NCBI GenBank assembly: GCA_046350655.1
Contig: JAXMAB010000004.1
Coordinates: 1,005,225 to 1,069,224, forward strand
From: Planctomycetota bacterium
GTDB lineage: Bacteria; Planctomycetota; PLA2; JAEUHO01
Direction of reading: 5' to 3'
DNA length: 64,000 nt
A model generated the notes under the pieces. That model made no database searches. It was not told the origin of the DNA and saw only the letters and a list, made by a program, of their open reading frames with translations. Both the position numbers and the translations under genes were made by a program. Below, piece by piece: positions 3,622 through 25,534 of this stretch. The first letter of the stretch is position 1; every line of letters begins with the position of its first letter.

Positions 3622-3720
3622 GGGGATTCCGGTCGGGAACGGGGGGTGAATCCCGGAGGGTACCAGCCTCGGACGGGACCGGCGCGGTCGGCGCACCCGG
3701 GGGGCGTAGACTCTCGGGTC

Positions 3721-5145: not shown

Positions 5146-5175
5146 CGCGCGTCCGCGAGGACGCGGTCGGTGCCC

Positions 5176-5215
5176 GGGACCGCGAGGCCCGGCGGCCGGC
5201 GGGCCTCGCGGTCCC
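5176..5215. repeat. REP-like palindromic element (GGGACCGCGAGGCCC ggcggccggc GGGCCTCGCGGTCCC) in the convergent 3-prime region after pyk
   Basis: Perfect 15-bp inverted arms around a 10-nt loop. Member of a family seen at least 12 times in the window. Confidence 0.6.
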
Positions 5216-5248
5216 GAGCCCTCGACCGCGCGGCGACGGACCGCGCGC

Positions 5249-5461
5249 CTACAACGCGCCGGTCAGCCAGAGCCCGGCGGCCATCAGCGCCGCGCCGAGG
5301 ATCGCGGCCGTGGCGCCCTTCTGGACGCTCTTGTCGGCCAGCGCGATCACCCCGACCAGCAGGACCGCCATGCCCGTGAGCCCGAGGACGACGCCCATGA
5401 CGGTCTTGAGCGTGTCGCCGATCGAGGCCAGGACGAGGAGCGTGCTCAGGACGGCGGTCAT
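5249..5461 (-). CDS. small hydrophobic membrane protein (70 aa, two predicted TM helices)
   Basis: MTAVLSTLLVLASIGDTLKTVMGVVLGLTGMAVLLVGVIALADKSVQKGATAAILGAALMAAGLWLTGAL. Its ATG overlaps the stop of the upstream AI-2E gene (ATGA), so the two are translationally coupled. Strong GC3 bias. Confidence 0.5.
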   Translation of the reverse strand: MTAVLSTLLVLASIGDTLKTVMGVVLGLTGMAVLLVGVIALADKSVQKGATAAILGAALMAAGLWLTGAL

Positions 5462-6957: not shown

Positions 6958-7014
6958 GCGGTCTACGCTACCCGGGGTCGCCCCCGGCGGCGAGGGGACC
7001 GGACGGCGCCGGCA

Positions 7015-7400
7015 CGCGCGAGGCCCCGGGCGGCGGTCAGGGGTTCGGGGACGCGAGGCCCGGTGGCCCGCGCGTCCCGGGGCCACGTCCGCGACCGGGC
7101 CTCGCGGTCCCGGACATCGTCCGGTTCCGCCCAACGGGGACCGGCACCCAATGGCGGAACCGGCGCGGGCGGCGATCCGCCAATAAACGACCGGCACGTA
7201 TTGGCGGGGACCGGCACCGAATGGCGGAACCAGCACGGGGGGTGTCCATCGACGGACGACCGGCGTCGATGGGCACGGGGGGCGATCCGCCAATCAACGA
7301 CCGGCACGTAGTGGCGGATGCGGTCGGCGGCGGTCGTCGAGAGGGGCGCCGGCCAGCGGGCCTCGCGTACCGGAGGCTCGGGGATCGCGCCCAGAGCGAA
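7015..7400. repeat. cluster of REP-like palindromes and GACCGGCAC-loop hairpin units between the AI-2E gene and the 3-prime end of the giant gene
   Basis: CGCGAGGCCCGG / CCGGGCCTCGCGGTCCC arms at 7061-7106. Units GGTTCCGCCCAACGGGGACCGGCACCCAATGGCGGAACC, GGCGATCCGCCAATAAACGACCGGCACGTATTGGCGG, GGGACCGGCACCGAATGGCGGAACC and GGCGATCCGCCAATCAACGACCGGCACGTAGTGGCGGATGCGG. Confidence 0.5.
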
Positions 7401-7684
7401 CGCCGGCGGCGGGGCCCGGCTCGGGCGAGTGGTGGCCAGGCCGCCTGCGGCCCGGCCTCCCTGCGACGTGCGCCTGCCGAGACTTCTCGCGCGCTACGTC
7501 GGGTCGATGTTGGTGCCGGCCGCCGTGAGATCGAGCAGCGTCCCGAGATCGACCAGCGTCGGGGGCTCGTAGGGCGCGGTGGCGGGGCGGGAATCGACGT
7601 GGGCCATGGCGAGGGAATGAAACACCAAAGGGGTCCGAGGGTCAACCGGGGAATCAGGCTCGGCCGGGGGCGGGGCCCCCGGGG

Positions 7685-10600
7685 TCAGCGGCGGTCGCCG
7701 CCCTTGGGGCGGTCCTTGCCCGCTTCGGGCGCGCGGGGGGTGGCGGAGCGGTCGTTCTTGTCGTTGCGGTCGTCCTTCTTGTCGTTGCCCCGCTCCTTGC
7801 CCTTGTCCTTGCCGTCGCCGCCGTCCTTGCCGCCGCGATCGCCGGGGACCGGGCAGACGTCCGGCTTCGGGGGCGGCGGGCAGGTGGGGACGGCGTCCGG
7901 GCAGGCCGCGGGGCCGTTCGTGCCGCGGTTGAAGGCCTTGAGGGTGCGGTGGAGGAGGACGGCGCGCTCCTCGGCGAGGCCGCAGAAGCCGCGGCAGCCC
8001 TGGACGAGCAGGCAGCCCGCCTCGTCGATCGCGTCGGCGACCTTCCGGGACGGGGTGTTGCCCGCGGCGACGTTGAGCTGTGCGGCGATGTAGGCCTGGG
8101 CGAGGGCGACCCACGCGTCGTCCTTGGCGGAGGCGTCGAGGATGGAGCGCCAGGTGCGGCCGCAGAGGCGGCGCGACTCGGCGCCGTCGAGCGGCCACGG
8201 GACGCGCGTGGCGGCGCAGGCGCCGTCGCGGTGGACGGCGCGCCACCAGCCGACGTCGCGGACGCAGGTGGTCGGGGGCGGCGGCGGCTCCCAGCACGCG
8301 AACGGGACGACCGAGGCGACGGCGAAGTCGGGGACGTCGTCGCACCAGAGCGGGGTCCAGTTGCGGGGGAACGTGGCGCCGGGCACGAGGGACGCGCGGG
8401 TGAACGTGTCGGCGGCGGCCTCGCCGACGCCGTTGACGACGACCTCGAGGCGGAACGGGCCGTCGAAGAAGCCGCCGTCGATCGTGCCCGGGTCGGCGGT
8501 CACGCAGACGCGGACCTTGGCGTAGCCGTCGACGACCGTGAGGCCTTCGACGCGGAGGACGCCGTTGGCGCCGACGGCGGTGCCGGGGAACGCGCCGGTG
8601 TAGCCGAGGCAGACGAGGTCGCGGATGTCGCCGGCGCGCGTGCCGCGGTCGACGCGGACGTACACGTCGAAGTCGCGGGTGTGCGGGTCGGCGAGCCAGA
8701 CGCTGGCTTCGAAGCAGGCTTCGTGGACGCGCGGGTCGGTGCCCGGGTCGCACGTCGGCGGCGCGGCGCGGTAGCCGAAGTCCTTCGTGAGGTCGGTGGA
8801 GCCGCCGGTGACGGCCGCCGGGACCGTCGCGGTCGCCGGGAACGTGCGGGTGAGGCCGGTGGGCAGCGTGCTCTCGACGACGCGGAGCCGGTAGGCGCCG
8901 TCGAGGAGGCCGGGGAAGAGGTAGGAGCCGCCGGGGCCGGTCAGCTGCGAGCCGACGACGCGCCCGGCGGCGTCGAGCAGCTCGACGGTGACGCCGGCGA
9001 GGCCCGGCTCGCCGGTGGGGTCCTGGAGGCCGTCGCCGTCGGCGTCGAGCCACACGCGGCCGCCGAGCGCGACGCGCGGGGCGCCGAAGCCGAAGTCCTT
9101 CGTGCGGTCCGTGGAGGCGTTCGTGACGGTCGCGGACTGCTGCAGGCCGCCCGTGGTGGACACGAGGCCCGGCGGCAGCGACGCCGCGACGACGCGGACG
9201 GTGTAGGCCCCGTTCGCGAGGCCGTCGAAGAGGTAGGCGCCGTCGGGGCCGGTGACCTTCGACGCGACGGGCTGGCCCGCGGCGTTCAGCAGTTCGAGCG
9301 TCACGCCCGGCAGCCCGGGCTCGCCGGGATCCTGGAGGCCGTCGCCGTCCGTGTCGGCCCAGACACGGTCGCCGATCGCGCCCGTGGGCGGGGGCGGCGG
9401 CGGGGGCGTCGAGGTGTGGAAGCCGAACTCGAGGCCGGTGACGTCGTTGCCGTTCGTGATCGTCGCGGGGCGGGAGGTGGGCGTGGTGGCGTTGTAGTCC
9501 GCGGGGACCGAGCCCGGCTGGACGCGCACCGTGTACGAGCCGTCGGGCAGGTGATCGAAGGTGTACGTGCCGTCGGGGCCGGTGGTGGTGGTCGCGACGA
9601 CATTGCCGTTGCGGTCGACGAGCTCGACCACCGCGCCCGGGATGCCGGGCTCGCCCGCGTCGGTCGTGCCGTCGCCGTCGGTGTCGTTGAACACGCGGCC
9701 GGTGATCGTGCCCGAGGGCTGGTAGCCGAAGTCCTTCGAGAGATCGGTCGAGGCGTTGAGCACCGTCGCGGCCTGCTGCGTGCCTCCGAACGTGTTCGTG
9801 AGGCCCGTGGGCAGCGTCGCCGGCACGACGCGCACCGTGTAGGTGCCGTCGGCGAGCCCGTCGAACAGGTAGCCACCCGCCGAGTTCGTGACCTCGGTCG
9901 CGATGACCTGGCCCGCCGCATTCAGCAGTTCGAGCGTCACGCGGGAGATGCCGTCTTCACCGGCGTCCTGGACGCCGTCGCCGTCGACGTCGAACCACAC
10001 GCGATCGCCGATCGCACCCGTGGGCGAGTCGAAGCCGAAGTTGAGGCCGGTGACGTCGCTGCCGCCCGTGATCACGGCCGGGAGCGACGTCGGCGTCGTG
10101 GCGTTGAGGCCGGCCGGAACGCTGCCGGGCTGGACCCGCACCGTGTAGGCGCCGTCGGGCAGGTGATCGAAGGTGTAGGTGCCGTCGGGGCCGGTCGTGG
10201 TGGTCGTGACGACGTTGCCGTTCGCATCGACCAGCTCGACCACCGCACCCGGGATGCCGGGCTCGCCGGCGTCGGTCGTGCCGTCGCCGTCGGTGTCGTT
10301 GAAAACGCGCCCGGTGATCGTGCCCGAGGGCTGGTAGCCGAAGTCCTTCGAGAGATCGGTCGAGGCGTTCGTGACCGTGGCGCTCTGCTGCGCGCCGCCG
10401 AACGTGTTCGTCAGGCCCGCCGGGAGCGTGGCCGGCACGACGCGCACGGTGTAGGTGCCGTCCGCGAGGCCGTCGAACAGGTAGCCGCCCGCCGAGTTCG
10501 TGACCTCGGTCGCGATGACCTGGCCCGCCGCGTTGACGAGCTCGAGCGTCACGCCGGAGATGCCGTCCTCGCCGGAGTCCTGGACGCCGTCGCCATCGAC

Positions 10601-13600
10601 GTCGAACCACACGCGATCGCCGATCGCACCCGTGGGCGAGTCGTAGCCGAAGTTGAGGCCGGTGACGTCGTTGCCGTTTGCAACGACCGCCGGGAGCGAG
10701 GTCGGCGTGGTGGCGTTGAGGCCGGCGGGCACGCTGCCGGGCTGGACGCGCACCGTGTAGGCGCCGTCCGGCAGGTGGTCGAACGTGTACGTGCCGTCGG
10801 GGCCGGTCGTCCTCGTGGCGACGACGTTGCCGTTCGCATCGACCAGCTCGACGATCGTGCCGGGGATGCCGGGCTCGCCCGCGTCGGTCGTGCCGTCGCC
10901 GTCGGTGTCGTTGAACACGCGACCGGTAATCGTGCCGGACGGCTGGTAGCCGAAGTCCTTCGAGAGGTCGGTGGACGCGTTCGTGACCGTGGCGCTCTGC
11001 TGCGCGCCGCCGAACGTGTTCGTCAGGCCCGCCGGGAGCGTGGCCGGCACGACGCGCACGGTGTACGTGCCGTCGGCGAGGCCGTCGAAGAGGTAGCCCC
11101 CGGCCGAGTTCGTGACCTCGGTCGCGATGACCTGGCCCGCCGCGTTGACCAGCTCGAGCGTCACGCCGGAGATGCCGTCCTCGCCGGCGTCCTGGACGCC
11201 GTCGCCGTCGACGTCGAACCACACGCGGTCGCCGATGGCGCCCGTCGGCGAGTCGTAGCCGAAGTTGAGGCCGGTCACGTCGTTGCCGCCTGCAACGACC
11301 GCCGGGAGCGACGTCGGCGTGGTGGCGTTGAGGCCCGCCGGGACGCTGCCCGGCTGGACGCGCACCGTGTACGAGCCGTCGGGCAGGTGATCGAAGGTGT
11401 ACGACCCGTCGGGGCCGGTCGTGGTGGTCGTGACGACTGTGCCGTTGCTGTCCACCAACTCGACGATCGCGCCGGGGATGCCCGGCTCGCCGGCGTCGGT
11501 GGTTCCGTCGCCGTCAATGTCGTTGAAGACGCGGCCGGTGATCGTGCCCGAGGGCTGGTAGCCGAAGTCCTTCGAGAGATCGGTCGACGCGCTCGTGACC
11601 GTGGCGCTCTGCTGCGTGCCGCCGAACGTGTTCGTGAGGCCCGCCGGGAGCGTGGCCGGCACGACGCGCACCACGTAGGTGCCGTCCGCGAGGCCGTCGA
11701 AGAGGTAGCCACCGGCCGAGTTCGTGACCTCGGTCGCGATGACCTGGCCCGCCGCGTTGCGCAGTTCGAGCGTCACGCCGGAGATGCCGTCCTCGCCGGC
11801 GTCCTGGACACCGTCGCCATCGACATCGAACCACACGCGATCGCCGAGCGCGCCCGTGGGCGAGTCGTAGCCGAAGTTCAGACCGGTGACGTCGCTGCCG
11901 CCGACGATGTCCGCGGGCAGCGACGCGGGCGTCGTCGCGTTGAGGCCGGCCGGGACGCTGCCGGGCTGGACGCGCACCGTGTACGCGCCGTCGGGCAGGT
12001 GATCGAAGGTGTAGGTGCCGTCGGGGCCGGTCGTGGTGGTCGCGACGACGTTGCCGTTGCTGTCGACGAGCTCGACCACCGCACCCGGGATGCCCGGCTC
12101 GCCGGCGTCGGTCGTGCCGTCGCCGTCGGTGTCGTTGAACACGCGGCCGGTGATCGTGCCCGAGGGCTGGTAGCCGAAGTCTCTCGAGAGATCGGTCGAG
12201 GCGTTGAGCACCGTCGCGGCCTGCTGCGTGCCGCCGAACGTGTTCGTGAGGCCCGCCGGGAGCGTGGCCTGCACGACGCGCACGGTGTAGGTGCCGTCGG
12301 CGAGGCCGTCGAACAGGTAGCCACCCGCCGAGTTCGTGACCTCGGTCGCGATGACCTGGCCCGCCGCGTTGCGCAGTTCGAGCGTCACGCCGGAGATGCC
12401 GTCCTCGCCGGCGTCCTGGACGCCGTCGCCATCGACGTCGAACCACACGCGATCGCCGAGGGCGCCGGTGGGCGAGTCGTAGCCGAAGTTGAGGCCGGTG
12501 ACGTCGTTGCCGTTCGTGATCGTCGCGGGGAGCGAGGTCGGCGTGGTGGCGTTGAGGCCGGCCGGCACGCTGCCGGGCTGGACGCGCACGGTGTACGCGC
12601 CGTCGGGCAGGTGATCGAAGGTGTAGGTGCCGTCGGGGCCGGTCGTGGTGGTACCGACGACGTTGCCGTTCGCGTCCACCAGTTCGACGATCGCGCCGGG
12701 GATGCCGGGCTCGCCGGCGTCGGTCGTGCCGTCGGCGTCGACGTCGTTGAAGACGCGCCCGGTGATGGTGCCCGAGGGCTGGTAGCCGAAGTCTTTCGAG
12801 AGGTCGGTGGACGCGTTCGTGACGGTGGCCGACTGTTGCGTGCCGCCGAACGTGTTCGTCAGGCCCGCCGGGAGGGTCGCCGGCACGACGCGCACCACGT
12901 AGGTGCCGTCGGCGAGGCCGTCGAAGAGGTAGCCACCGGCCGAGTTCGTGACCTCGGTCGCGATGACCTGGCCCGCGGCGTTGCGCAGTTCGAGCATCAC
13001 GCCGGAGATGCCGTCCTCGCCGGCGTCCTGGACGCCGTCGCCATCGACGTCGAACCACACGCGGTCGCCGATGGCGCCCGTGGGGGAGTCGTAGCCGAAG
13101 TTGAGGCCCGTGACGTCGCTGCCGCCCGTGATCGTCGCAGGGAGCGAGGTCGGCGTCGTGGCGTTGAGGCCGGCCGGGACGCTGCCGGGCTGGACGCGCA
13201 CGGTGTAGGCGCCGTCGGGCAGGTGATCGAAGGTGTAGGTGCCGTCGGGGCCGGTCGTGGTGGTCGCGACGACGTCGCCGTTGCTGTCGACGAGCTCGAC
13301 CACCGCGCCCGGGATGCCCGGCTCGCCGGCGTCGGTCGTGCCGTCGCCGTCGGTGTCGTTGAACACGCGACCGGTGATCGTGCCGGACGGCTGGTAGCCG
13401 AAGTCCTTCGAGAGATCGGTCGAGGCGTTCGTGACCGTGGCGCTCTGCTGCGCGCCGCCGAACGTGTTCGTCAGGCCCGCCGGGAGCGTGGCCGGCACGA
13501 CGCGCACCGTGTAGGTGCCGTCGGCGAGGCCGTCGAACAGGTAGCCGCCCGCCGAGTTCGTGACCTCGGTGGCGACCACCTGACCCGAGGCGTTGACGAG

Positions 13601-16600
13601 CTCGAGCGTCACGCCGGAGATGCCGTCCTCGCCGGCGTCCTGGACGCCGTCGCCGTCGACGTCGAACCACACGCGGTCGCCGATGGCGCCCGTGGGGGAG
13701 TCGTAGCCGAAGTTGAGACCGGTGATGTCGTTGCCGCTGACGATGTTCGCGGGCAGCGACGTCGGCGTCGTGGCGTTGAGGCCGGCCGGGACGCTGCCCG
13801 GCTGGACGCGCACCGTGTACGCGCCGTCGGGCAGGTGATCGAACGTGTACGTGCCGTCGGGGCCGGTGGTAGTGGTCGCGACGACGTTGCCGTTGCTGTC
13901 GACGAGCTCGACCACCGCACCCGGGATGCCGGGCTCGCCGGCGTCGGTCGTGCCGTCGCCGTCGGTGTCGTTGAACACGCGGCCGGCGATCGTGCCCGAG
14001 GGCTGGTAGCCGAAGTCCTTCGAGAGGTCGGTCGAGGCGTTGAGCACCGTCGCGGCCTGCTGCGCGCCGCCGAACGTGTTCGTCAGGCCCGCCGGGAGCG
14101 TGGCCGGGACGACGCGCACCGTGTAGGTGTCGTCGGCGAGACCGTCGAACAGGTAGCCGCCCGCCGAGTTCGTGACCTCGGTCGCGACCACCTGACCCGA
14201 GGCGTTGACGAGCTCGAGGCTGACACCCGAGATGCCGTCCTCGCCGGCGTCCTGGACGCCGTCGCCATCGACGTCGAACCACACGCGGTCGCCGATCGCG
14301 CCGGTGGGCGAGTCGTAGCCGAAGTTGAGGCCGGTGACGTCGTTGCCGCCGACGATGTTCGCGGGCAGGGACGAAGGCGTCGTCGCGTTGAGGCCGGCCG
14401 GAACGCTGCCGGGCTGGACGCGCACCGTGTACGCGCCGTCGGGCAGGTGGTCGAACGTGTAGGACCCGTCGGGGCCGGTCGTGGTGGTCGCGACGACGTT
14501 GCCCTTCGCGTCCACCAGTTCGACGATCGCGCCGGGGATGCCGGGCTCGCCGGCGTCGGTCGTGCCGTTGCCGTCGGTGTCGTTGAACACGCGACCGGTG
14601 ATCGTTCCCGAGGGCTGGTAGCCGAAGTCCTTCGAGAGATCGGTCGACGCGCTCGTCACGGTGGCCGACTGCTGCGCACCGCCGAACGTGTTCGTCAGGC
14701 CCGCCGGGAGCGTGGCCGGCACGACGCGCACCACGTAGGTGCCGTCCGCGAGGCCGTCGAAGAGGTAACCGCCCGCCGAGTTCGTGACCTCGGTCGCGAT
14801 GACCTGGCCCGCCGCGTTGACGAGCTCGAGCGTCACGCCGGAGATGCCCGCCTCGCCGGCGTCCTGGACACCGTCTCCGTCGACGTCGAACCACACGCGG
14901 TCGCCGATCGCGCCCGTGGGCGAGTCGTAGCCGAAGTCGAGGCCGGTGACGTCGTTGCCGCCCGAGATCGTCGCGGGGAGCGAGGTCGGCGTCGTCGCGT
15001 TGAGGCCGGCCGGCACGCTGCCCGGCTGGACCCGCACCGTGTAGGCGCCGTCGGGCAGGTGGTCGAACGTGTACGTGCCGTCGGGGCCGGTCGTGGTGGT
15101 CGTGACGACGTTGCCGTTGCTGTCCACCAACTCGACGACCGCGCCGGGGATGCCGGGCTCGCCGACGTCGGTGGTGCCGTCGCCGTCGGTGTCGTTGAAC
15201 ACGCGGCCGGTGATGGTGCCCGAGGGCTGGTAGCCGAAGTCCTTCGAGAGATCGGTCGAGGCGTTGAGCACCGTCGCGGCCTGCTGCGTGCCGCCGAACG
15301 TGTTGGTCAGGCCCGCCGGGAGCGTGGCCGGCACGACGCGCACCGTGTAGGTGCCGTCGGCGAGACCGTCGAACAGGTACCCTCCCGCCGAGTTCGTGAC
15401 CTCGGTCGCGATGACCTGGCCCGCCGCGTTGACGAGCTCGAGGGTGACACCCGAGATGCCGTCCTCGCCGGCGTCCTGGACGCCGTCGCCGTCGACGTCG
15501 AACCACACGCGGTCGCCGACCGCGCCCGTGGGCGAGTCGTAGCCGAAGTTGAGGCCGGTGACGTCGTTGCCGTTTGCAACGACCGCCGGGAGTGAGGTCG
15601 GCGTGGTGGCGTTGAGGCCGGCCGGGACGCTGCCGGGCTGGACGCGCACCGTGTACGCGCCATCGGGCAGGTGATCGAAGGTGTAGGTGCCGTCGGGGCC
15701 GGTCGTGGTGGTCGCGACGTCATTGCCGTTCGCATCGACCAGCTCGACCACCGCGCCCGGGATGCCGGGCTCGCCGGCGTCCGTCGTGCCGTCGCCGTCC
15801 ACGTCGTTGAAGACGCGACCGGTGATCGTGCCCGAGGGCTGGTAGCCGAAGTCCTTCGAGAGATCGGTGGACGCGTTGAGGATCGTCGCCGTCGAAGGCG
15901 AGCCGTCGGGGAACGTGCGCACGACGCCGGCCGGGAGCGTGGCCGGCACGACGCGCACCGTGTAGGTGCCGTCGGCGAGGCCGTCGAAGAGATAGCCGCC
16001 GTCGAAGTCGGTGACGTCGGTCCCGATCACCGCGCCGTTCACGTCGAGCAGTTCCAGCGTCACGCCCGGGATGCCCCGCTCGTTCGCGTCCTGCACGCCG
16101 TCGCCGTCGACGTCGAACCACACGCGGTCGCCGACCGCGCCGCCCGGCCGGCGATAGCCGTAGTCGTTGTCGAGGTCGCTGCCGCCGCCCGTCAACGTGA
16201 CCGGCGTCGTCGTCTGCCCCGGGAACGTCCGCACCGAGCCCGTCGGCAGCGTCGTCTCGTCGATCCGGACGACGTACGCGCCGTCGGGCAGCCCGAAGAA
16301 CCGGTACGTGCCGTCGGGCAGGGTCGTCGTCGTCGCGAGCACGTTCCCGTTCGCGTCGAGGAGGTCGATGCGCACGCCCTCTAGCCCCGGCTCGCCGGCC
16401 GGCGCCACGAGCCCGTTGCCGTCGCCGTCGCGCCACACGAGCCCGCCGAGAACGCCCTCGGGCCGATAGCCGAAGTCCTTCGTCAGGTCTGTCGACGCGT
16501 CGAGCACCGCCGCGGGCACCGTCGCGCCCGCCGGGAACGTCCGCACGAGCCCCGCCGGCACCGTCGCCTCGACGACGCGCACGCCGTACGCGCCGTCCGG

Positions 16601-19600
16601 CAGGCGGTCGAAGAGGTAGCGGCCGTCCGCCACGGTCTGCGTCGTCCGCAGCAGGCCGCCCGCGCCGTCGAGCAGCTCGACCGTCACGCCGACGAGACCC
16701 GGTTCGCCGAACGCGTCCTGCACGCCGTCGCCGTCGACGTCGAGCCACACGCGATCGCCGATCGCGCCCCGCGGGTCGCCCGAGCCACCGGGCCTCGCGT
16801 ACCCGAAGTCACGACCGCTCACCTCGTTCCCGCCCGCCACCGTCGCGGGCCGCGACGTGACCGTGGTCGCGTCGTACCCCGCGGGCGCGGTGCCGGGCTG
16901 GACCCGCACCGTGTACGCGCCGTCGGGGAGGTGCTCGAACGCGTACGTGCCGTCCGCCGCCGTCGTCGTCGTCGCGACGACGTTCCCGCCGCCGTCCACG
17001 AGCTCGACGCCGACGCCGGGCAGGCCGGGCTCGCCGACGTCCGCCGCGCCGTCGCGGTCCGTGTCGTCGAAGACGGTGCCGCGGACCGCGCCCGTCGGAC
17101 GGTAGCCGAAGTCCTTCGTGAGGTCCGTCGCGCCGTTCGTGACGGTGGCGGGCTGCTGCGCGCCGCCGAACGTGTTCTCGAGGCCCGACGGGAGCGTGGC
17201 CGCGACGACGCGCACCGTGTACGCGCCGTCGGGGAGCCCGCCGAAGAGGTACGTGCCGTCGCCCGCGGTCGTCGTCGTGCGGAGCACCGCGCCGCCGGCG
17301 TCGAGCAGCTCGATACCGACGCCGCCGAGGCCGGGCTCGCCCGCGTCCTGCGCGCCGTCGCCGTCCGCGTCGCGCCACACGCGGTCGCCGAGCGCGCCGG
17401 TGAAGCGGTACCCGACGTCGAGCGTCAGGTTCTGCCCGCCGATCGCGACCGCGCCGACGGGCGACGCCGTCGCCGACGTGCGGACGACGGTCTTCGGCAG
17501 CGTGGTCGCGTCCACCACGAGGCGGTACGTGCCCGCGGGCAGGCCGTCGACGAGGTAGAGGCCGTCCGTGCCCGTCGTGCGCCGGCCGAACGGGGCCGAC
17601 GTGAGGTCGTCGACGACGTCCACCACGACGCCCGGGATGCCCGGCTCGTCGGCGTCCTGCTGCGTGTCGCCGTCGAGGTCGAGCCAGATGCGGTCGCCGA
17701 CCGCGGCCGAGCCGCGGTAGCCGAAGTCGACGTTCGTCGTGGCGGCGGCCTCGACGACGGTGATGGGACGCGCGGCCGGCGGCGTCGTCGACGCGAGGCC
17801 CGGCGGCAGGCTCGAGCCCACCACGCGGACGGTCCAGGCCCCGACGGGCACGTCCTCGAAGAGGTACGCGCCGTCGTTGGCGGTGGTGCGGAACGCGCGC
17901 ACGACGCCGTTCGGGTCGACGAGCTCGAGCGACACGTTGCGCAGGCCCGGCTCCTCCGGGTCCTGCACGCCGTCGCCGTCGCGGTCGAGCCACACGCGGC
18001 CCGAGACGTCCTGCGACGGGCGGTAGCCGAAGTCCACGGGCGGCGTCGGCACGCCCGCCGTCACCGTCACGGGCACCGGCTGGCCGGGCGTCGTGCGCGT
18101 GAGCCCGTCGAGGAGCGGGTTGCCCTCGACGACGTTCACGAGGTAGTCGCCCACGGGCACCGACGTGAACTCGTACGTGCCGTCGGCGCGCGTCGTCGTC
18201 GTCGCGACGACGAGGCCGTCGCGCGTGAGGAGGCGGAGCTCGACGCCGCCGATGGGCGGCTCGCCCGCGTCGTGGACGCCGTCGCCGTCGCTGTCGCGGA
18301 ACACGGTCCCCGTCACCGAGCCGGTGGGGCGGTACCCGAAGTCGAGCGTCACGTCGGCGCCGCCCGCGGGGATCGTCGCGTTCTTGACGTCCGTCGGCGT
18401 CGTGCGGAGCGAGCCGGCGGGGGCCGTCGCGTCGAGGACCTTCACGCGGTACGTGCCCGCGTCGAGGCCGGAGAAGAGGTAGCGGCCGTCGGCGACCGTC
18501 TGCTGCGTCGAGAGCAGCACGTCCGTCTCGGACCGCAGCTCGACCGTCACGCCCGGCAGGCCCGGCTCGCCGTCGTCCTGGACGTCGTCGCCGTCGTCGT
18601 CGCGCCAGACGCGGTCGCCGACGCTGCCCGCGGGGCGGTACCCGAAGTCCGCGGTGCCGATCGCGCCGCCGGCCGGCAGCACGAGGTCGAGCGACGCCGG
18701 CGTCGTCGGCCCGTACCCGGCCGGGACGGTGGCCGTGACCACGCGGACCGTGAAGCTCCCCGCGGCCAGGTTGTCGAAGCGGTACGCGCCGTCGGCGTCC
18801 GTCGTCGTCGTGCGGAGGAACTGGCCCGCGCCGTCGAGCAACTCGAGGCCGACGCCCGGCAGGCCCGGCTCGTCGGCGGACTGCTGCCCGTCGCCGTCGC
18901 GGTCGTACCACACGCGGTCGCCGATCGTGCCGATGGGGCAGAAGCCCACGTCGAGGCCGAAGAGATTCTGGCGCGGCGCGAGCGTCCGCAGGATCGGCAG
19001 CGTCGTCGACGTCGTGCGCCCCGCGAGCGCGGGCTGGCCGGGGACCACCGACACGCTCCACGCGCCGGCCGGGACCGGGTCGAACCGCCACGCGCCGAGC
19101 GCGTCCGTCACGGCGAACAGCGGCGCCGCGCCGGGCACGTCGGTCCGCAGCGCCTGCACGCGCACGCCCGCGAGCGGCGGGTCCACGCGCACGTCGTCGT
19201 CGCCGTCGCAGTCGAGGTCCTCGAAGACGCGGCCCGACAGGCTCTGGCCGTCCACCGGCCGCACCTCGAGGTTCGTCCGCAGGAACCACGAGTTGCGGGC
19301 GTCGAGGTTGTGCATGACGACGACCCAGTCGCCCGGCAGGCCGTCGGCCGGGATCGGGATCGCCTCGAAGCCGGTCTCGGTGCCCGTCTCCTGCGAGACG
19401 TTGCCCGAGAGGTCGAACAGGACGACGCGCAGCGTGCCCGCCGGGTCGTACAGCTCGAGCCACGGGCTGCCGTCGACGCTCGGCTCCGTGGACGTCGGCA
19501 GCCGGTAGCCGGAGTTGTCGCGCGCGACGCCGTTCACCGTGTACGGCCGGCCGTCGTCGGGCGGCACGCCGGGCGCCGACGGGCTCACGGTGCCGTTGCG

Positions 19601-20596
19601 CGCGACGCCGCCGGCGTCGTCCACGTCGTCCGCGTCGCCCTCCTCGAGCACCACCCGCGTCAGGAACTGCGCCCAGCTCTCGCCGCGGCGCGGCACCATC
19701 CGCACGCGCACCGAGAACGACCCCGCGTACCGGTTCACGTACGGGTCGCCCGCCGGGTACCGCACCGCCGGCGCCACGTCGCCCTGCAGCGCGAGCGCGC
19801 CGTTCCAGCTCGGCGGCGGCTCGAGCACGTCCGGGTAGTGGTCGCGCGAGACCGAGTACGGGAACTGGGTGCCGTCCTCGCGCGCGAACAGGAGGTTGCG
19901 CGCGTCCACGACGCCGCCGATGAACCCCGCCAGCAGGATCTGGTCGGCGCCCGGGTCCTGGGCGAGCACGCCGTTCGCCGCGACCTTGTAGCCGTTGATG
20001 GGGGCTCGCCCGCCGCCCGTCGGCACCGGCAGCCGGTACGACACGACGAGCCGATACGCGTACTCCTCGGTCTCCGTGACCCGGGCGTTCGGGTGGTGCG
20101 GGGCGTCGACCAGGAACTCCCACCGGCTGTCGATCGCGTTCGCGAACACCTTCGTCACGTCCGCGCTCTGCGCGCCGGGCGCCTCGGACTCGCCGACGGC
20201 GACCACCGTCGCCGGGTGGTCGGGCGAGTTCGTCGTCACGACGTACCGGACCACCGACCCGTCCGGCAGCGGCGCGCCGTCGGGGCCGTTCGAGAGGAGG
20301 TTCTGGTCCCAGAGCCCGGCCGCGTTGCCGTCGAAGATCGCGAGCCGCAGGCGGTCGGTGTTCAGGCTGCAGGTGACGCCGAACTGCGCCGGCTGCGACA
20401 GCGACGAGTTGCCGTCGGCGATCAGGTCGTGGAAGACGCCGCTGTGGCTGTCGCGGTCCGGCAGGCCCTGGAACTCCGCCCCCGCGACGAGTTCGTCGTT
20501 GTCGAACGGCTCGGCGGCCTGGGTCGACAGCGGCAGGAACGCGAGGAGGGCCGGGGCGGCGGCCGCCGCCCATCGGCGGAGCTTCGGGAAGCGCAT
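7685..20596 (-). CDS. giant secreted repeat protein (4,303 aa): signal peptide, ~560-aa N-terminal module, roughly 30 or more SdrD-B/Cna-B-like Ca-binding repeat domains (DxDGDG motifs), Cys-rich C-terminal module and a K/D-rich tail
   Basis: Track ORF 7685..20629. Start chosen at M12 (ATG 20596, with GGAGG 8 nt upstream), giving MRFPKLRRWAAAAAPALLAFLPLSTQAAEP. Repeated units ...AIGDRVWFDVDGDGVQDAGEDGISGVTLELVNAAGQVIATEVTNSAGGYLFDGLADGTYTVRVVPATLPAGLTNTFGG... and ...GTITGRVFNDTDGDGTTDAGEPGIPGAVVELVDSNGNVVATTTTGPDGTYTFDHLPDGAYTVRVQPGSVPAGLNATTP... Codons have almost uniformly G/C third positions. Confidence 0.85.
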   Translation of the reverse strand: MRFPKLRRWAAAAAPALLAFLPLSTQAAEPFDNDELVAGAEFQGLPDRDSHSGVFHDLIADGNSSLSQPAQFGVTCSLNTDRLRLAIFDGNAAGLWDQNLLSNGPDGAPLPDGSVVRYVVTTNSPDHPATVVAVGESEAPGAQSADVTKVFANAIDSRWEFLVDAPHHPNARVTETEEYAYRLVVSYRLPVPTGGGRAPINGYKVAANGVLAQDPGADQILLAGFIGGVVDARNLLFAREDGTQFPYSVSRDHYPDVLEPPPSWNGALALQGDVAPAVRYPAGDPYVNRYAGSFSVRVRMVPRRGESWAQFLTRVVLEEGDADDVDDAGGVARNGTVSPSAPGVPPDDGRPYTVNGVARDNSGYRLPTSTEPSVDGSPWLELYDPAGTLRVVLFDLSGNVSQETGTETGFEAIPIPADGLPGDWVVVMHNLDARNSWFLRTNLEVRPVDGQSLSGRVFEDLDCDGDDDVRVDPPLAGVRVQALRTDVPGAAPLFAVTDALGAWRFDPVPAGAWSVSVVPGQPALAGRTTSTTLPILRTLAPRQNLFGLDVGFCPIGTIGDRVWYDRDGDGQQSADEPGLPGVGLELLDGAGQFLRTTTTDADGAYRFDNLAAGSFTVRVVTATVPAGYGPTTPASLDLVLPAGGAIGTADFGYRPAGSVGDRVWRDDDGDDVQDDGEPGLPGVTVELRSETDVLLSTQQTVADGRYLFSGLDAGTYRVKVLDATAPAGSLRTTPTDVKNATIPAGGADVTLDFGYRPTGSVTGTVFRDSDGDGVHDAGEPPIGGVELRLLTRDGLVVATTTTRADGTYEFTSVPVGDYLVNVVEGNPLLDGLTRTTPGQPVPVTVTAGVPTPPVDFGYRPSQDVSGRVWLDRDGDGVQDPEEPGLRNVSLELVDPNGVVRAFRTTANDGAYLFEDVPVGAWTVRVVGSSLPPGLASTTPPAARPITVVEAAATTNVDFGYRGSAAVGDRIWLDLDGDTQQDADEPGIPGVVVDVVDDLTSAPFGRRTTGTDGLYLVDGLPAGTYRLVVDATTLPKTVVRTSATASPVGAVAIGGQNLTLDVGYRFTGALGDRVWRDADGDGAQDAGEPGLGGVGIELLDAGGAVLRTTTTAGDGTYLFGGLPDGAYTVRVVAATLPSGLENTFGGAQQPATVTNGATDLTKDFGYRPTGAVRGTVFDDTDRDGAADVGEPGLPGVGVELVDGGGNVVATTTTAADGTYAFEHLPDGAYTVRVQPGTAPAGYDATTVTSRPATVAGGNEVSGRDFGYARPGGSGDPRGAIGDRVWLDVDGDGVQDAFGEPGLVGVTVELLDGAGGLLRTTQTVADGRYLFDRLPDGAYGVRVVEATVPAGLVRTFPAGATVPAAVLDASTDLTKDFGYRPEGVLGGLVWRDGDGNGLVAPAGEPGLEGVRIDLLDANGNVLATTTTLPDGTYRFFGLPDGAYVVRIDETTLPTGSVRTFPGQTTTPVTLTGGGSDLDNDYGYRRPGGAVGDRVWFDVDGDGVQDANERGIPGVTLELLDVNGAVIGTDVTDFDGGYLFDGLADGTYTVRVVPATLPAGVVRTFPDGSPSTATILNASTDLSKDFGYQPSGTITGRVFNDVDGDGTTDAGEPGIPGAVVELVDANGNDVATTTTGPDGTYTFDHLPDGAYTVRVQPGSVPAGLNATTPTSLPAVVANGNDVTGLNFGYDSPTGAVGDRVWFDVDGDGVQDAGEDGISGVTLELVNAAGQVIATEVTNSAGGYLFDGLADGTYTVRVVPATLPAGLTNTFGGTQQAATVLNASTDLSKDFGYQPSGTITGRVFNDTDGDGTTDVGEPGIPGAVVELVDSNGNVVTTTTTGPDGTYTFDHLPDGAYTVRVQPGSVPAGLNATTPTSLPATISGGNDVTGLDFGYDSPTGAIGDRVWFDVDGDGVQDAGEAGISGVTLELVNAAGQVIATEVTNSAGGYLFDGLADGTYVVRVVPATLPAGLTNTFGGAQQSATVTSASTDLSKDFGYQPSGTITGRVFNDTDGNGTTDAGEPGIPGAIVELVDAKGNVVATTTTGPDGSYTFDHLPDGAYTVRVQPGSVPAGLNATTPSSLPANIVGGNDVTGLNFGYDSPTGAIGDRVWFDVDGDGVQDAGEDGISGVSLELVNASGQVVATEVTNSAGGYLFDGLADDTYTVRVVPATLPAGLTNTFGGAQQAATVLNASTDLSKDFGYQPSGTIAGRVFNDTDGDGTTDAGEPGIPGAVVELVDSNGNVVATTTTGPDGTYTFDHLPDGAYTVRVQPGSVPAGLNATTPTSLPANIVSGNDITGLNFGYDSPTGAIGDRVWFDVDGDGVQDAGEDGISGVTLELVNASGQVVATEVTNSAGGYLFDGLADGTYTVRVVPATLPAGLTNTFGGAQQSATVTNASTDLSKDFGYQPSGTITGRVFNDTDGDGTTDAGEPGIPGAVVELVDSNGDVVATTTTGPDGTYTFDHLPDGAYTVRVQPGSVPAGLNATTPTSLPATITGGSDVTGLNFGYDSPTGAIGDRVWFDVDGDGVQDAGEDGISGVMLELRNAAGQVIATEVTNSAGGYLFDGLADGTYVVRVVPATLPAGLTNTFGGTQQSATVTNASTDLSKDFGYQPSGTITGRVFNDVDADGTTDAGEPGIPGAIVELVDANGNVVGTTTTGPDGTYTFDHLPDGAYTVRVQPGSVPAGLNATTPTSLPATITNGNDVTGLNFGYDSPTGALGDRVWFDVDGDGVQDAGEDGISGVTLELRNAAGQVIATEVTNSAGGYLFDGLADGTYTVRVVQATLPAGLTNTFGGTQQAATVLNASTDLSRDFGYQPSGTITGRVFNDTDGDGTTDAGEPGIPGAVVELVDSNGNVVATTTTGPDGTYTFDHLPDGAYTVRVQPGSVPAGLNATTPASLPADIVGGSDVTGLNFGYDSPTGALGDRVWFDVDGDGVQDAGEDGISGVTLELRNAAGQVIATEVTNSAGGYLFDGLADGTYVVRVVPATLPAGLTNTFGGTQQSATVTSASTDLSKDFGYQPSGTITGRVFNDIDGDGTTDAGEPGIPGAIVELVDSNGTVVTTTTTGPDGSYTFDHLPDGSYTVRVQPGSVPAGLNATTPTSLPAVVAGGNDVTGLNFGYDSPTGAIGDRVWFDVDGDGVQDAGEDGISGVTLELVNAAGQVIATEVTNSAGGYLFDGLADGTYTVRVVPATLPAGLTNTFGGAQQSATVTNASTDLSKDFGYQPSGTITGRVFNDTDGDGTTDAGEPGIPGTIVELVDANGNVVATRTTGPDGTYTFDHLPDGAYTVRVQPGSVPAGLNATTPTSLPAVVANGNDVTGLNFGYDSPTGAIGDRVWFDVDGDGVQDSGEDGISGVTLELVNAAGQVIATEVTNSAGGYLFDGLADGTYTVRVVPATLPAGLTNTFGGAQQSATVTNASTDLSKDFGYQPSGTITGRVFNDTDGDGTTDAGEPGIPGAVVELVDANGNVVTTTTTGPDGTYTFDHLPDGAYTVRVQPGSVPAGLNATTPTSLPAVITGGSDVTGLNFGFDSPTGAIGDRVWFDVDGDGVQDAGEDGISRVTLELLNAAGQVIATEVTNSAGGYLFDGLADGTYTVRVVPATLPTGLTNTFGGTQQAATVLNASTDLSKDFGYQPSGTITGRVFNDTDGDGTTDAGEPGIPGAVVELVDRNGNVVATTTTGPDGTYTFDHLPDGSYTVRVQPGSVPADYNATTPTSRPATITNGNDVTGLEFGFHTSTPPPPPPPTGAIGDRVWADTDGDGLQDPGEPGLPGVTLELLNAAGQPVASKVTGPDGAYLFDGLANGAYTVRVVAASLPPGLVSTTGGLQQSATVTNASTDRTKDFGFGAPRVALGGRVWLDADGDGLQDPTGEPGLAGVTVELLDAAGRVVGSQLTGPGGSYLFPGLLDGAYRLRVVESTLPTGLTRTFPATATVPAAVTGGSTDLTKDFGYRAAPPTCDPGTDPRVHEACFEASVWLADPHTRDFDVYVRVDRGTRAGDIRDLVCLGYTGAFPGTAVGANGVLRVEGLTVVDGYAKVRVCVTADPGTIDGGFFDGPFRLEVVVNGVGEAAADTFTRASLVPGATFPRNWTPLWCDDVPDFAVASVVPFACWEPPPPPTTCVRDVGWWRAVHRDGACAATRVPWPLDGAESRRLCGRTWRSILDASAKDDAWVALAQAYIAAQLNVAAGNTPSRKVADAIDEAGCLLVQGCRGFCGLAEERAVLLHRTLKAFNRGTNGPAACPDAVPTCPPPPKPDVCPVPGDRGGKDGGDGKDKGKERGNDKKDDRNDKNDRSATPRAPEAGKDRPKGGDRR
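9400..15600. repeat. intragenic near-identical tandem DNA repeats (period alternating about 600/630 bp, about 10 copies; more diverged copies on both sides)
   Basis: The string CCGAAGTTGAGGCCGGTGACGTCG(T/C)TGCCG recurs at about 9421, 10021, 10651, 11251, 11881, 12481, 13081, 13711, 14311 and 15541. Each period encodes two ~100-aa SdrD-B-like domains. Confidence 0.7.
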
Positions 20597-20839
20597 ACAG
20601 ACCTCCTGCGGGGAGAGGACCGGAGGCAACTCCGGTGCCGGGCCCTCATCCGGCCTTCATAACGACGGGGAGGGACGCGCCGGGCGCACCTCAAGTCGCC
20701 ATGGATCAAGGACTTACGTCGGCGCGCAACCGACCCGTTGCCGGTCGATTCCGCGACGTCGAGCGGGCGGGGTGCTGCGGAATTCGGACAAGTCCCCCGG
20801 CGCCGATGTCGCACCGCCGCGACACGGACCGTGCGGCCT

Positions 20840-21060: not shown

Positions 21061-21081
21061 CGCCGTGCTCCCCGGGAAACG

Positions 21082-21110
21082 AAAAACGGCCGGCCCTCGC
21101 GGGCCGGCCG
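21082..21110 (-). terminator. intrinsic terminator of the 981-aa paralog gene
   Basis: On the minus strand, a 10-bp GC stem (CGGCCGGCCC gcga GGGCCGGCCG) is followed by TTTTT, shortly after the TAA stop. Adjacent is a perfect 20-bp palindrome GCGGCGCGCATGCGCGCCGC at 21121-21140. Confidence 0.6.
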
Positions 21111-21155
21111 TCCAGGAGGCGCGGCGCGCATGCGCGCCGCAACCGATGGGTTCGC

Positions 21156-24101
21156 TTACTTCTTGCCGCCCTTGTTGCCCGGCTTGCCCGGAGCGGTGCC
21201 GACGCCGTCGTTCACCGGCGGGTTGCCCGGGGGCTGGGGATCGAGGCCGTTGCCGACGCCGTTGTTGCCCTTCGGCTTGTCGTCGCACTTGTCCTTGGGC
21301 TTCTCGCACTTGGACTTGTCGTCGTCGCACTTGTCCTTGGGCTTCTCGCACTTGGACTTGTCGTCGTCGCAGCGGTCCTTGGGCTTGTCGCACTTGGACT
21401 TGTCGTCGTCGCAACGGTCCTTGGGCTTGTCGCACTTGGACTTGTCGTCGTCGCACTTGTCCTTGGGCTTGTCGCCCTTCGGCTTGTCGTCGCAGCGGTC
21501 CTTCGGCTCGTCGCACTTCGGCTTCGGATCGCACTTCGGCTTCGGGTCGCACTTCGGCGGCGGGGGCGGGCAGCAGGGCACCTTCACGATGCACGCCACC
21601 GGGCCGGCCTTGCCGTCGTTGTAGCCCTTCAGCACCAGGTAGACGATCCGGGCGCGCTCCTCGGCGAGGCCGCAGAGCCCGCCGCAGTTCTGCTCGAGCA
21701 GCGCCGCAGCCTCCTCAAGGGCGGCCGCGACCGTCTTCGGGGTGCAGGCCCCGCCGGCGGCGTTGAGCTTCGCGACGATCCACTGCTGGGCGAGGGCCAC
21801 CCACGCGTCGCACTTGGCGCTGGCCTTGAGGATCGACAGCCACGACTTGCCGCAGAGGACCTTGTCCTCGCCGCCGTCGACCGGCCACGCGATCTTCGTC
21901 GCCTCGCAGGTGCCGTACTTGTTGACCGTCTTCCACCAGGCCAGGCCCTTGACGCAGCCGTCCGTGCACGGCTTGTCCGGCCAGCACTCCCAGGCGAGGT
22001 ACGACTTCAGGAAGAAGTCGGGGACGTCATCGCACCAGAGCGGCTTCCAGTCGGCCGGGAACGTCCCGCCGATCTTGAGCGACTTGCAGGAGAACTCGCC
22101 GCAGGCCGCCTCGCCGACGCAGTTGACGACGACCGTCAGCTTCATCGTGCCGTCGAAGTAGCCCATCGGGAACCACGCCGGGTCGGCCGTGGCGCACACG
22201 AGGACCTTGGCGTAGCCGTCGACGACCTTGATGTCCTTGACCTTCAGGACGCCGTTGCGGCCGGTCTGCTCGCCGGGGAAGGCCCCGTCGTAGCCGAAGC
22301 AGGCGAGGTCCACCATCGGCGGGTCGCACTCGCAGCCCTTGTCGAGCCGGACGTAGACGTCGAAGGACGTCGTGGTCGGGTCGGCGAGCCACACGCTCGA
22401 CTCGAAGCACACCTCGTGGAGGCGGCCCGTCTCGCCGCAGTCGCAGGTCTTCTCGCAGTAGCCGATGTCGGCGTCCTTGAGGTTGACCGACGGGACGACC
22501 GTCTTCGACAGCGGCTGGACGATCGCCGACGTCATGTTCGGCACGTCCGAGTCGACCGAGATGTTGTACGTCCCGGCCGGGATCGGGTTGACCGAGTAGA
22601 AGCCGTTCGCGTCCGTCACGCGGAAGATCGGCGCCGCGGGGGCGTCGGTGCGCTGGATGCGGACCGTCAGGCCGGAGAGGGCCGGCTCGACGTCGGCCTC
22701 GTCGTCACCGTCGCAATTCAGGTCGCGGTAGACGCGGCCCTCGAGCGACTGCGTGAGCGGGTTGAACTCGACGTTCGCGCGGAGGAACCACGAGTTGCGC
22801 GCGTCGAGGTTGTGCATCCGCAGCGTCCAGAGGCCCGGGATGCCGTCGAGCGGCACCGGGATCTTCTCGAACGCGGCGCCGGTGTTGTCCTCCTGGGCCA
22901 CGTTGCCCGAGAGGTCGAGCAGCGTCACGCGGACCACGCCGTTCGGGTCCACGAGCTCGAGCCACGGGCTGCCCGCGTCGCTCGGCTGGGCCGCGAACGG
23001 GAGGCGGTAGCCGGAGTTGTCGTGCGCGATGCCGCGCTGGTCGACGTAGGCGCGGCCGTCGTCCGGCGGGATGCCGGCGTTGCTCGGGCTGGGCATGCCC
23101 TCGGGGCTGATGCCCGAGAGGTCGTCCACGTCGTCGGCGTCACCCTCCTCGAGGATGAGGTTCTCGACGAAGTTCACCCAGCTCTGGCCGGGGCTCGGGA
23201 CGAGGCGGATGCCGAGCTCGAAGTCGCCCTTGTACTTGTTCACGAACGGGTCGGGGCTCGGGAACCGGACGGCCGGGAGCGCGGCGGCCGGGCCGTTCAG
23301 GATCGAGTTCAGGTTCGCGCTGGGCTCGAGCACGTCCGGGTAGTGGTCGCGCGAGACCGAGTACTCGTCCCCGTTCACCGGCGAGCCGGGGAACTTGAAG
23401 AGCATGTTGCGCGAGTCGACGACGCCGCCGATGAACCCGCCGGTCAGCAGCTGGCCGACCTGGACGGGGATCAGGCCGAAGGGCGCGTTGATCGCGACCT
23501 TGTAGCCGTTGATCGGGGCGATGTTGCTGCCCGACGGCGTCGGCTGGCGGTACTTCACCAGCAGGCGGTAGACGTGGCGGCCGTCCGGGAGCAGCGCGTT
23601 CGGGTGGTGCGGGCCGTCGTAGAGGAACTGCCAGCGGCCGTCCACGGCGTACGTGAAGATCGCCGCGCCCGGACGGGGCGCCGCGCTCTCCGAGTCGGCG
23701 ATGGCGACCACCGTCTCCGGGGCCGTCGGCGACGCGGTGACGAGGTCGTACTCGACGACCGAGCCGTCCGGCACCGGGTTGCCGTTCGCGTCGTTGTCGA
23801 TCTTGTTCTGGTCCCAGAGGCCGCCCGCGTTGCCGTCGAAGATGGCGACGCGGAGCGAGGTGCTCTCGGCCGGGGCCGCGATCCCGAAGACGTTCGGGCC
23901 GGTCACCGAGCTCGAGCCGACCGCGATGAGGTCCAGGAACACGCCGCTGTGCGTGTCCTTGTCCGGGAGGGCGAGGAACTCCGAGCCGGCGACCAGCTCG
24001 TCGTTGTCGAAAGGCTCGGCGGCGAAGGCCGGCGCCGTCAAGAAGCACGCCGCGGCCGAGAGGCCGAGCAGCGCGCGCGAGAACCACGTCATGCGACCCA
24101 T
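21156..24101 (-). CDS. 981-aa secreted paralog of the giant protein (shared N-terminal module and Cys-rich C-terminal module; no SdrD-B array; K/D/C-rich tandem-repeat tail)
   Basis: Signal peptide MGRMTWFSRALLGLSAAACFLTAPAFAAEPFDNDELVAG. Aligns residue-by-residue with the giant protein N-terminus (AAEPFDNDELVAG.., PINGYKV.., SVSRDHYPDVLEP.., LEEGDADDVDD.., NLDARNSWFLR..) and with its C-terminal module (HEVCFESSVWLADP.., WCDDVPDF.., DAWVALAQ.., CGGLCGLAEERA..). Confidence 0.85.
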   Translation of the reverse strand: MGRMTWFSRALLGLSAAACFLTAPAFAAEPFDNDELVAGSEFLALPDKDTHSGVFLDLIAVGSSSVTGPNVFGIAAPAESTSLRVAIFDGNAGGLWDQNKIDNDANGNPVPDGSVVEYDLVTASPTAPETVVAIADSESAAPRPGAAIFTYAVDGRWQFLYDGPHHPNALLPDGRHVYRLLVKYRQPTPSGSNIAPINGYKVAINAPFGLIPVQVGQLLTGGFIGGVVDSRNMLFKFPGSPVNGDEYSVSRDHYPDVLEPSANLNSILNGPAAALPAVRFPSPDPFVNKYKGDFELGIRLVPSPGQSWVNFVENLILEEGDADDVDDLSGISPEGMPSPSNAGIPPDDGRAYVDQRGIAHDNSGYRLPFAAQPSDAGSPWLELVDPNGVVRVTLLDLSGNVAQEDNTGAAFEKIPVPLDGIPGLWTLRMHNLDARNSWFLRANVEFNPLTQSLEGRVYRDLNCDGDDEADVEPALSGLTVRIQRTDAPAAPIFRVTDANGFYSVNPIPAGTYNISVDSDVPNMTSAIVQPLSKTVVPSVNLKDADIGYCEKTCDCGETGRLHEVCFESSVWLADPTTTSFDVYVRLDKGCECDPPMVDLACFGYDGAFPGEQTGRNGVLKVKDIKVVDGYAKVLVCATADPAWFPMGYFDGTMKLTVVVNCVGEAACGEFSCKSLKIGGTFPADWKPLWCDDVPDFFLKSYLAWECWPDKPCTDGCVKGLAWWKTVNKYGTCEATKIAWPVDGGEDKVLCGKSWLSILKASAKCDAWVALAQQWIVAKLNAAGGACTPKTVAAALEEAAALLEQNCGGLCGLAEERARIVYLVLKGYNDGKAGPVACIVKVPCCPPPPPKCDPKPKCDPKPKCDEPKDRCDDKPKGDKPKDKCDDDKSKCDKPKDRCDDDKSKCDKPKDRCDDDKSKCEKPKDKCDDDKSKCEKPKDKCDDKPKGNNGVGNGLDPQPPGNPPVNDGVGTAPGKPGNKGGKK

Positions 24102-24382
24102 GTGCTTTGCAATCCCTTCCTGGGGAGGGGGACCGGCGTCGGCCGGTCGGACGCGGGACAGTAGCAGAATCCGAGCCGAATGCGGTCCCAGGGTGGATTG
24201 TTTCGTAACTATTTTTCCAGTAACGAGTTACGAGTTTTGGCGTCGTGGGGGGGCGGACGGCCGCCGTTCATCGCGCGCGACGGACGTTCATTTCGCACGA
24301 CATCCCCCTCGCCGCCCGGGATTCCTCCCACCGCGGGCCGCTCTGCCTACAGAATCCCCCCGTCCCCCAGGGGGACCTCCCC

Positions 24383-25493
<1,111 letters not shown>

Positions 25494-25534
25494 CGACGGC
25501 GCCCCCGCCCGCTCGGGGCGCGGTCAGGGGGTCG

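Follow-up and report, generated by a model that had tools for sequence, protein, structure and literature searches.

A giant gene of a Planctomycetota bacterium encodes, with a probability that we put at about 0.8, a secreted protein with a stalk of two-domain SdrD B-like repeats, the length of which has been changed by concerted evolution. The gene lies on the minus strand of a 64,000-nucleotide stretch (the window; all positions are counted from its first letter) of contig JAXMAB010000004.1 (GTDB PLA2, JAEUHO01; assembly GCA_046350655.1, positions 1,005,225–1,069,224 of the forward strand), which has a GC content of about 74%. A sequence-only reading had reported about ten near-identical tandem repeats of alternately 600 and 630 bp in this gene, located between 9400 and 15600. 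A long coding tandem array is indeed present at this place, but its period, its extent and the identity of its units had been described incorrectly.

Self-comparison of the locus revealed a single dominant lag of 612 bp (204 codons) with an identity of 0.79, compared to about 0.33–0.40 at other lags. The 21-nt marker GAAGTTGAGGCCGGTGACGTC (up to four mismatches) was found at 9425, 10037, 10649, 11261, 11873, 12485, 13097, 13709, 14321, 14933 and 15545, and all 11 sites are spaced exactly 612 bp apart. The alternating period is thus aliasing from the 30-nt lines in which the sequence had been read, and the copy at 14933 had been overlooked. When 60-nt windows were compared with the sequence 612 bp downstream, identities of 0.8–1.0 were obtained with windows that start between about 9400 and about 15280; the repeated sequence thus extends to about 15835–15890 and does not end at 15600. 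The array consists of ten full units, each with an A-type and a B-type domain (14915–15526 down to 9407–10018), and a leading B-type domain (15527–15835) that represents the B-half of an eleventh unit. The true count is therefore 10.5 units, which contain 21 of the 34 domains of the protein. Since each unit is made of two domains, Tandem Repeats Finder (TRF) also detected an underlying half-period of 306 bp (20.7 copies, 65% matches). Superperiods of 1224 or 1836 bp were rejected, with lag identities of 0.776 and 0.770 compared to 0.788 at 612 bp.

The ten full units are 84.8–94.0% identical at the DNA level (mean 89.9%) and 87–96% identical at the amino acid level, and no exact repeat in the array is longer than 119 bp, so that calling them near-identical was an overstatement. 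The longest in-register exact run per pair of units has a median of 59 bp (range 38–119 nt). The nonsynonymous divergence (dN) between units is 0.052 and the synonymous divergence (dS) 0.29, with 66% of the mismatches at codon position 3; the resulting dN/dS of 0.18 shows that every copy is under purifying selection. The array has a GC content of 71.4%, compared to 75.4% in the rest of the giant gene, and a GC content at third codon positions (GC3) of 95.8%, compared to 98–99%. It is overlapped by an antisense open reading frame (ORF) of 2,548 codons (7949–15595, plus strand), which is best explained not as a gene but as a product of the GC3 of 96–99% and of the repeat carrying a stop-free frame on.

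Two unlike SdrD B-like domains are encoded by each 612-bp unit. One (A type) has 101 residues and the other (B type) 103, and short proline-containing linkers connect successive domains. Adjacent domains of the array are 43–50% identical, whereas alternate domains (i and i+2) share 87–99% of their residues. A search of the unit sequence against PDB chains identified the B1-B2 region of Staphylococcus aureus SdrD (10ps_A, E 2.8e-19), as well as 4jdz and UafA. The AlphaFold (AF2) model of one two-domain unit reached a predicted local distance difference test score (pLDDT) of 95.6 and a predicted template modelling score (pTM) of 0.82, and its top Foldseek match in the PDB was again 10ps (E 4.7e-18, 30% identity). 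The unit is thus predicted to adopt the SdrD B fold, a CnaB/prealbumin-like beta-sandwich in tandem. Both domains carry an EF-hand-like loop, DxDxDGxxDxxE, and an alignment of 17 two-domain units shows no variation at residues D10, D12, E21, D112, D114, D120 and E123. By analogy with the homologous SdrD B region, the domains probably bind calcium. The short linkers, together with the structure of SdrD B1-B2 (PMC13174682), suggest an extended, rod-like stalk. A Lys-Asn/Asp isopeptide pair within each domain is not compatible with the lysine counts, as A-type domains contain one lysine and B-type domains mostly none. The shortage of lysine in B-type domains makes isopeptide-bonded CnaB pilin domains a poor model, and these also ranked lower among the fold matches.

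The repeats outside the array belong to the same family. Pfam SdrD_B (PF17210) matched the giant protein with E=0 and 2053 bits (cut-off 29.7) in 33 stretches, and a hidden Markov model (HMM) built from the units resolved 34 contiguous domains at residues 450–3946 (window 8759–19249). The proximal domains 1–11 are mutually divergent, with identities of 35–56% between neighbours and 34–78% between alternate domains. The open frame around the gene comprises 4,314 codons (7685–20629) and reaches back to a TTG at 20629. A Sec-type signal peptide is predicted at the N-terminus, its cleavage site having been inferred by reading the translation rather than computed; the short paralog described below has an N-terminus of the same form. 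The protein is accordingly read as secreted, and it may be located at the cell surface. Neither the head that follows the signal peptide nor the Cys-rich C-terminal region of about 357 residues gave a hit in Pfam or in PDB sequence searches, and homologs among 5.8 billion proteins numbered seven for the head and two for the C-terminal region. Table 1 lists the coordinates of all features.

Table 1. Features of the giant gene and its short paralog (window positions).
Feature	Position	Strand	Description	Basis
Giant gene	7685..20596	-	4,303 codons + stop, ATG at 20596	ORF list and translation
Predicted Sec-type signal peptide	20507..20596	-	aa 1-30; MRFPKLRRWAAAAAPALLAFLPLSTQA, cleaved before AEP	read from translation
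N-terminal head domain	19250..20506	-	aa 31-449, between signal peptide and domain 1	
Domains 1-11	15836..19249	-	proximal, mutually divergent SdrD B-like	HMM domain parse
Domains 12-32	9407..15835	-	high-identity array	period, identity and HMM parse
Poly-proline linker	9386..9406	-	STPPPPPPP, closes the array	translation
Domains 33-34	8759..9385	-	distal, divergent SdrD B-like	HMM parse; Pfam on C-terminal piece
C-terminal Cys-rich domain and tail	7688..8758	-	15 Cys, then Lys/Asp/Arg-rich tail	translation
Short paralog	21156..24101	-	981 aa; same head and Cys-rich tail domain, 1 SdrD B-like domain between	
Coding tandem repeat in tail of paralog	21279..21558	-	42 bp, DKSKCDKPKDxCDD, about 5 copies, in Cys/Lys/Asp-rich tail	TRF and translation

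The paralog next door shows what the protein looks like without the long insert. Its head is 55% identical to that of the giant protein, and for its counterpart of the Cys-rich C-terminal region a confident structure prediction gave a beta-sandwich with three helices. The giant gene is the short form with an insert of 34 domains, the paralog being the no-stalk reference form, and this arrangement fits a spacer role for the repeats. Several further observations concern the paralogs in related genomes. The tail repeat is present with 4.4 copies of 42 bp in one relative (917–1100 of L006, see below) and with 9.3 copies of 27 bp in another (208–458 of L007), thus this repeat varies as well. On a metagenome contig (L008, Ga0163144_10016482, 1957–9265), seemingly two short paralogs lie in tandem ahead of the giant gene, one matching window 21079–25501 with 86% and the other window 21531–24022 with 75% identity. 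The DNA encoding the C-terminal domain of the giant gene in L007 (10085–10963) is 67% identical to the short paralog of the window (21441–22310) and does not match the giant C-terminus of the window; possibly, sequence has been exchanged between short and giant paralogs.

Orthologs on long contigs were available from two relatives, both syntenic with the window: L006 (GCA_964268455.1, CAXXZE010000012.1) and L007 (ERZ25039503, contig_53871). Head and proximal repeats of L006 are 93–95% identical to those of the window, and the flanking genes of L007 70–79%. The HMM counted 34 SdrD B-like domains in the window, 30 in L006 and 25 in L007. The expected variation in protein length, which the sequence-only reading had placed between strains or cells, was thus found in orthologous genes, its scope being between lineages. 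L006 carries nine markers instead of 11 and is offset by 1254 nt in the alignment, showing that its array is two 612-bp units shorter. The arrays comprise 8.5 units in L006 and 9 units in L007, the latter being 89–98% identical to each other. TRF and autocorrelation had suggested that L007 has no high-identity array; this was rejected, since 1-nt indels blur the register and alignment unit by unit shows the nine units. We read the fragmented genes of L006 and L007 as sequencing error and not as decay, because both assemblies contain many 1-nt indels and because BipA is also split in L007. A scan of metagenomes for the same species found no long contig; the closest fragment (L010) is 1.4 kb long and 95% identical at the nucleotide level. 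In the closest short-read metagenome-assembled genome (MAG), MAG-19, the poly-proline linker is kept and there is a structural difference of half a unit: the A-type domain of the last array unit is followed directly by the linker (L003, JAEUHO010000577.1, 1–800), whereas in the window a B-type domain precedes it.

Repeats of this kind endanger short-read assembly, as had been pointed out from the sequence, and this hazard is real: in three relatives, short-read contigs break off within the repeats. In MAG-19 (MEGAHIT k141), two contigs stop about 1.3 and about 1.5 units into the array from opposite sides. One of them (L004, JAEUHO010000249.1) is in frame for about 1.3 units and then appears, in its last 400 nt or so, to turn into an inverted (reverse-complement) copy, a hairpin-type contig-end artefact. 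The other contig begins 1.5 units before the poly-proline linker, and the contigs of two further relatives terminate inside the repeat region. Could the array or its copy number in the window have been created or distorted by mis-assembly as well? The k-mer content shows where this danger lies, with 43% of the k-mers in the array non-unique at k=31, 13% at k=55 and 3% at k=77, and a collapse that joins two units within a shared run of 40–119 nt is conceivable. All k-mers of 120 nt or more are unique, however, all 10.5 units are distinct, the junctions are exactly in register and a frame of 12.9 kb is open in DNA with 74% GC. In addition, two independent assemblies of relatives contain the same kind of array. 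We therefore consider an artefact highly improbable. The suspicion that the copy number might be wrong has no internal support; the number given here is plausible.

The units do not appear to have diverged independently of each other. Mean identity between units within a genome is 89.9% in the window, 88.3% in L006 and 93.3% in L007, while units of different genomes share on average 86.9% (window and L006) or 81.6% (L007 and either of the other two). Genome-specific clades were recovered in 200 of 200 bootstrap replicates for L007 and in 145 of 200 for the window; grouping by genome is thus strong for the most distant relative and moderate for the window. Positional orthology of units between window and L006 was rejected, as the identity matrix shows no diagonal. 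In an alternative history, the array would have been amplified once, in one old burst, and would since have been static, with its units changing by point mutation independently of each other. The divergence of about 10% between units is in line with it, as is their dS, which exceeds the third-position divergence of about 10% in the flanks of window and L006, and the copy number of these two differs by just two units. Against such a history stands the mosaic structure of the units: at 91 informative sites in the window, 55% of the site pairs fail the four-gamete test, and incompatibility between nearby sites is lower than in all 2000 permutations, a significant spatial clustering. Moreover, no fixed difference separates the units of window and L006, and at 50 sites the same two alleles segregate in both genomes; the best counterpart of any array unit reaches no more than 92.5%, despite flanking gene parts that are 93–95% identical; and the L007 units are 93% alike and just 82% similar to those of the window. 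An array without exchange is thus very unlikely. Grouping by genome, shared polymorphism, mosaicism and the lack of positional orthology together point to unequal exchange and gene conversion among units, and indicate concerted evolution in which whole units were gained and lost.

How often such exchange happens is a separate question. The sequence-only reading had predicted frequent RecA-dependent expansion and contraction, that is, a high-frequency contingency locus that generates length heterogeneity from cell to cell. All pairs of units indeed share in-register exact runs of 38–119 nt, and runs of this length are longer than the shortest homology reported to support RecA-dependent exchange. 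Divergence of about 10%, on the other hand, strongly lowers homologous recombination, by orders of magnitude where mismatch repair is active, so that homologous exchange would be much rarer than in the near-identical repeats of Periscope Proteins, the variable-length stalk proteins to which we return below. Deletion between tandem repeats can also proceed independently of RecA. The recombination pathway behind the exchange of units is inferred. Known Periscope Proteins do vary between strains (PMC8201768, PMC9704523). The most variable Periscope genes have repeats of near-100% identity, a level from which the units described here are far removed, and a difference of only two units has accumulated across a flank divergence of 5–7%. 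A contingency locus is consequently unlikely.

Some points weigh against a secreted stalk that is tuned by concerted evolution. No LPXTG motif is present in the whole protein and its C-terminus has no hydrophobic anchor. The comparison of copy numbers spans different species-level lineages and not strains. L006 and L007 are error-rich long-read assemblies, in which 8 and 11 domains, respectively, are split by 1-nt indels, and with BipA also split in L007 the unit counts and sequences of the relatives could be imperfect. The units of L006 are not monophyletic (6/200), thus homogenisation since the split of window and L006 is only moderately supported. Independent amplification bursts in each lineage would yield a similar unit tree. 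Finally, the SdrD B fold was found to persist without calcium in a recent study of SdrD (PMC13174682).

Taken together, we propose that the array forms the central part of a protein stalk between the N-terminal head and the Cys-rich C-terminal domain. Judged by the homologous B region of SdrD, the 34 domains would most likely be a spacer that is stiffened by calcium and determines how far apart the two ends lie. Duplication proceeds by modules of two domains, which allows neighbouring domains to be dissimilar while the DNA repeats remain about 90% identical. This similarity would permit unequal exchange and gene conversion, which would add or remove whole units and keep the units more alike inside a genome than across genomes. 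The length of the stalk would thereby come to differ among lineages.

The neighbours of the giant gene are housekeeping genes (BipA, pyruvate kinase, AI-2E transporter, prfB, purH and mfd). With these neighbours, and with the locus syntenic in relatives, a mobile-element context could be ruled out. A scan for RNA families gave a single hit in the window, a tRNA-Phe (GAA) at 50077–50152 on the plus strand. CarboxypepD_reg-like domains are encoded in two more ORFs, at 30560–33004 and at about 33401–33700, both on the minus strand; the latter overlaps a long ORF of the plus strand, in which mfd (TRCF) lies from about 36140 on.

In the array, two unlike domains are duplicated as one module, an example of how neighbours can be dissimilar while DNA repeats are similar. 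Stalk proteins of variable length have mostly been known from pathogens, and the array suggests that they exist in environmental Planctomycetota as well. Since the repeat breaks short-read assemblies, similar genes would be systematically missing or truncated in MAGs. The two terminal domains, head and tail, are rare and have not been described before, and it is their function that would repay study. More tentatively, and with the odds rather against it, the two paralogs might be a natural "ruler" pair, so far found only in a small planctomycete clade, that shares a new head and a Cys-rich tail and differs in having one or 25–34 spacer domains, with the length of the long stalk adjusted as its (A-B)n module evolves in concert. 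If this were true, the two-domain module would reconcile the DNA similarity needed for length change with a neighbour identity below 50% that guards against misfolding, and the Periscope principle would also apply, with a new functional head, in bacteria that are free-living and non-pathogenic.

The closest characterised relative of the repeats is the B region of S. aureus SdrD (also SdrC/E and UafA), to which they are linked by the same PF17210 family in HMM searches, the sequence match to a solved chain and the predicted fold. SdrD B repeats have been described as calcium-binding domains with short rigid linkers, and their proposed role is to space the ligand-binding region away from the cell (PMC5902956, PMC13174682). 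An EF-hand-like loop directly after strand A is common to both proteins, as are tandem domains with short proline-containing linkers. The giant protein has 34 such domains and SdrD five, and the giant protein lacks the A region (N2N3), the Ser-Asp repeat region and the LPXTG anchor of SdrD; its host is a planctomycete with an outer membrane, whereas SdrD belongs to a Gram-positive pathogen. The B repeats of SdrD are described as conserved between the variants compared in PMC5902956, while here whole units differ between lineages. Membership in the Sdr family of MSCRAMMs was rejected accordingly: the NCBIfam models MSCRAMM_SdrD (1718.8, cut-off 2500) and MSCRAMM_SdrC (1219.8, cut-off 1700) scored below threshold and covered the B repeats alone, no N2N3 ligand-binding region was found in Pfam and PDB sequence searches, and neither an (SD)x3 run nor LPxTG occurs anywhere in the protein. 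Anchors of the sortase, type IX secretion system (T9SS) or PEP-CTERM type were not found either, with no sorting domain matching the C-terminus; Por_Secre_tail gave a score but no matched stretch above threshold and was discarded as an anchor.

In its architecture, the giant protein resembles the Periscope Proteins, for which stalks of variable length are defined by repeats of more than 50 aa with at least 80% identity (Whelan et al. 2021, PMC8201768). With 204-aa units that are 87–96% identical and with 34, 30 and 25 domains among homologs, the array falls under this operational definition of a Periscope stalk. Like SasG/Aap E-G5, Rib/alpha C, Sgo_0707 SHIRT and CdrA, it is a tandem array of folded domains from long, highly similar DNA repeats, and a non-repeat domain is located at the N-terminus in both cases. 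In SasG E-G5, the repeated module likewise consists of two different domains. Identities of about 50% or less between neighbouring domains have been linked to the avoidance of misfolding (PMC8201768), and the neighbours in our array lie at or below this value. Differences are a DNA identity of about 90% instead of nearly 100%, an environmental, uncultured host, variation that was seen between species-level relatives only, and a stalk that includes 13 old, divergent domains of the same family. A gene of more than 10 kb that is predicted to encode a repetitive secreted or surface protein also agrees with the giant genes reported from Planctomycetes (Reva and Tummler 2008; Kohn et al. 2016, PMC5177795); these reports are catalogues of gene sizes and domain hits, without this family, its short paralog or its repeat dynamics. 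The array is thus a well-supported feature of an expected kind in an unusual host, with terminal domains that have not been described before.

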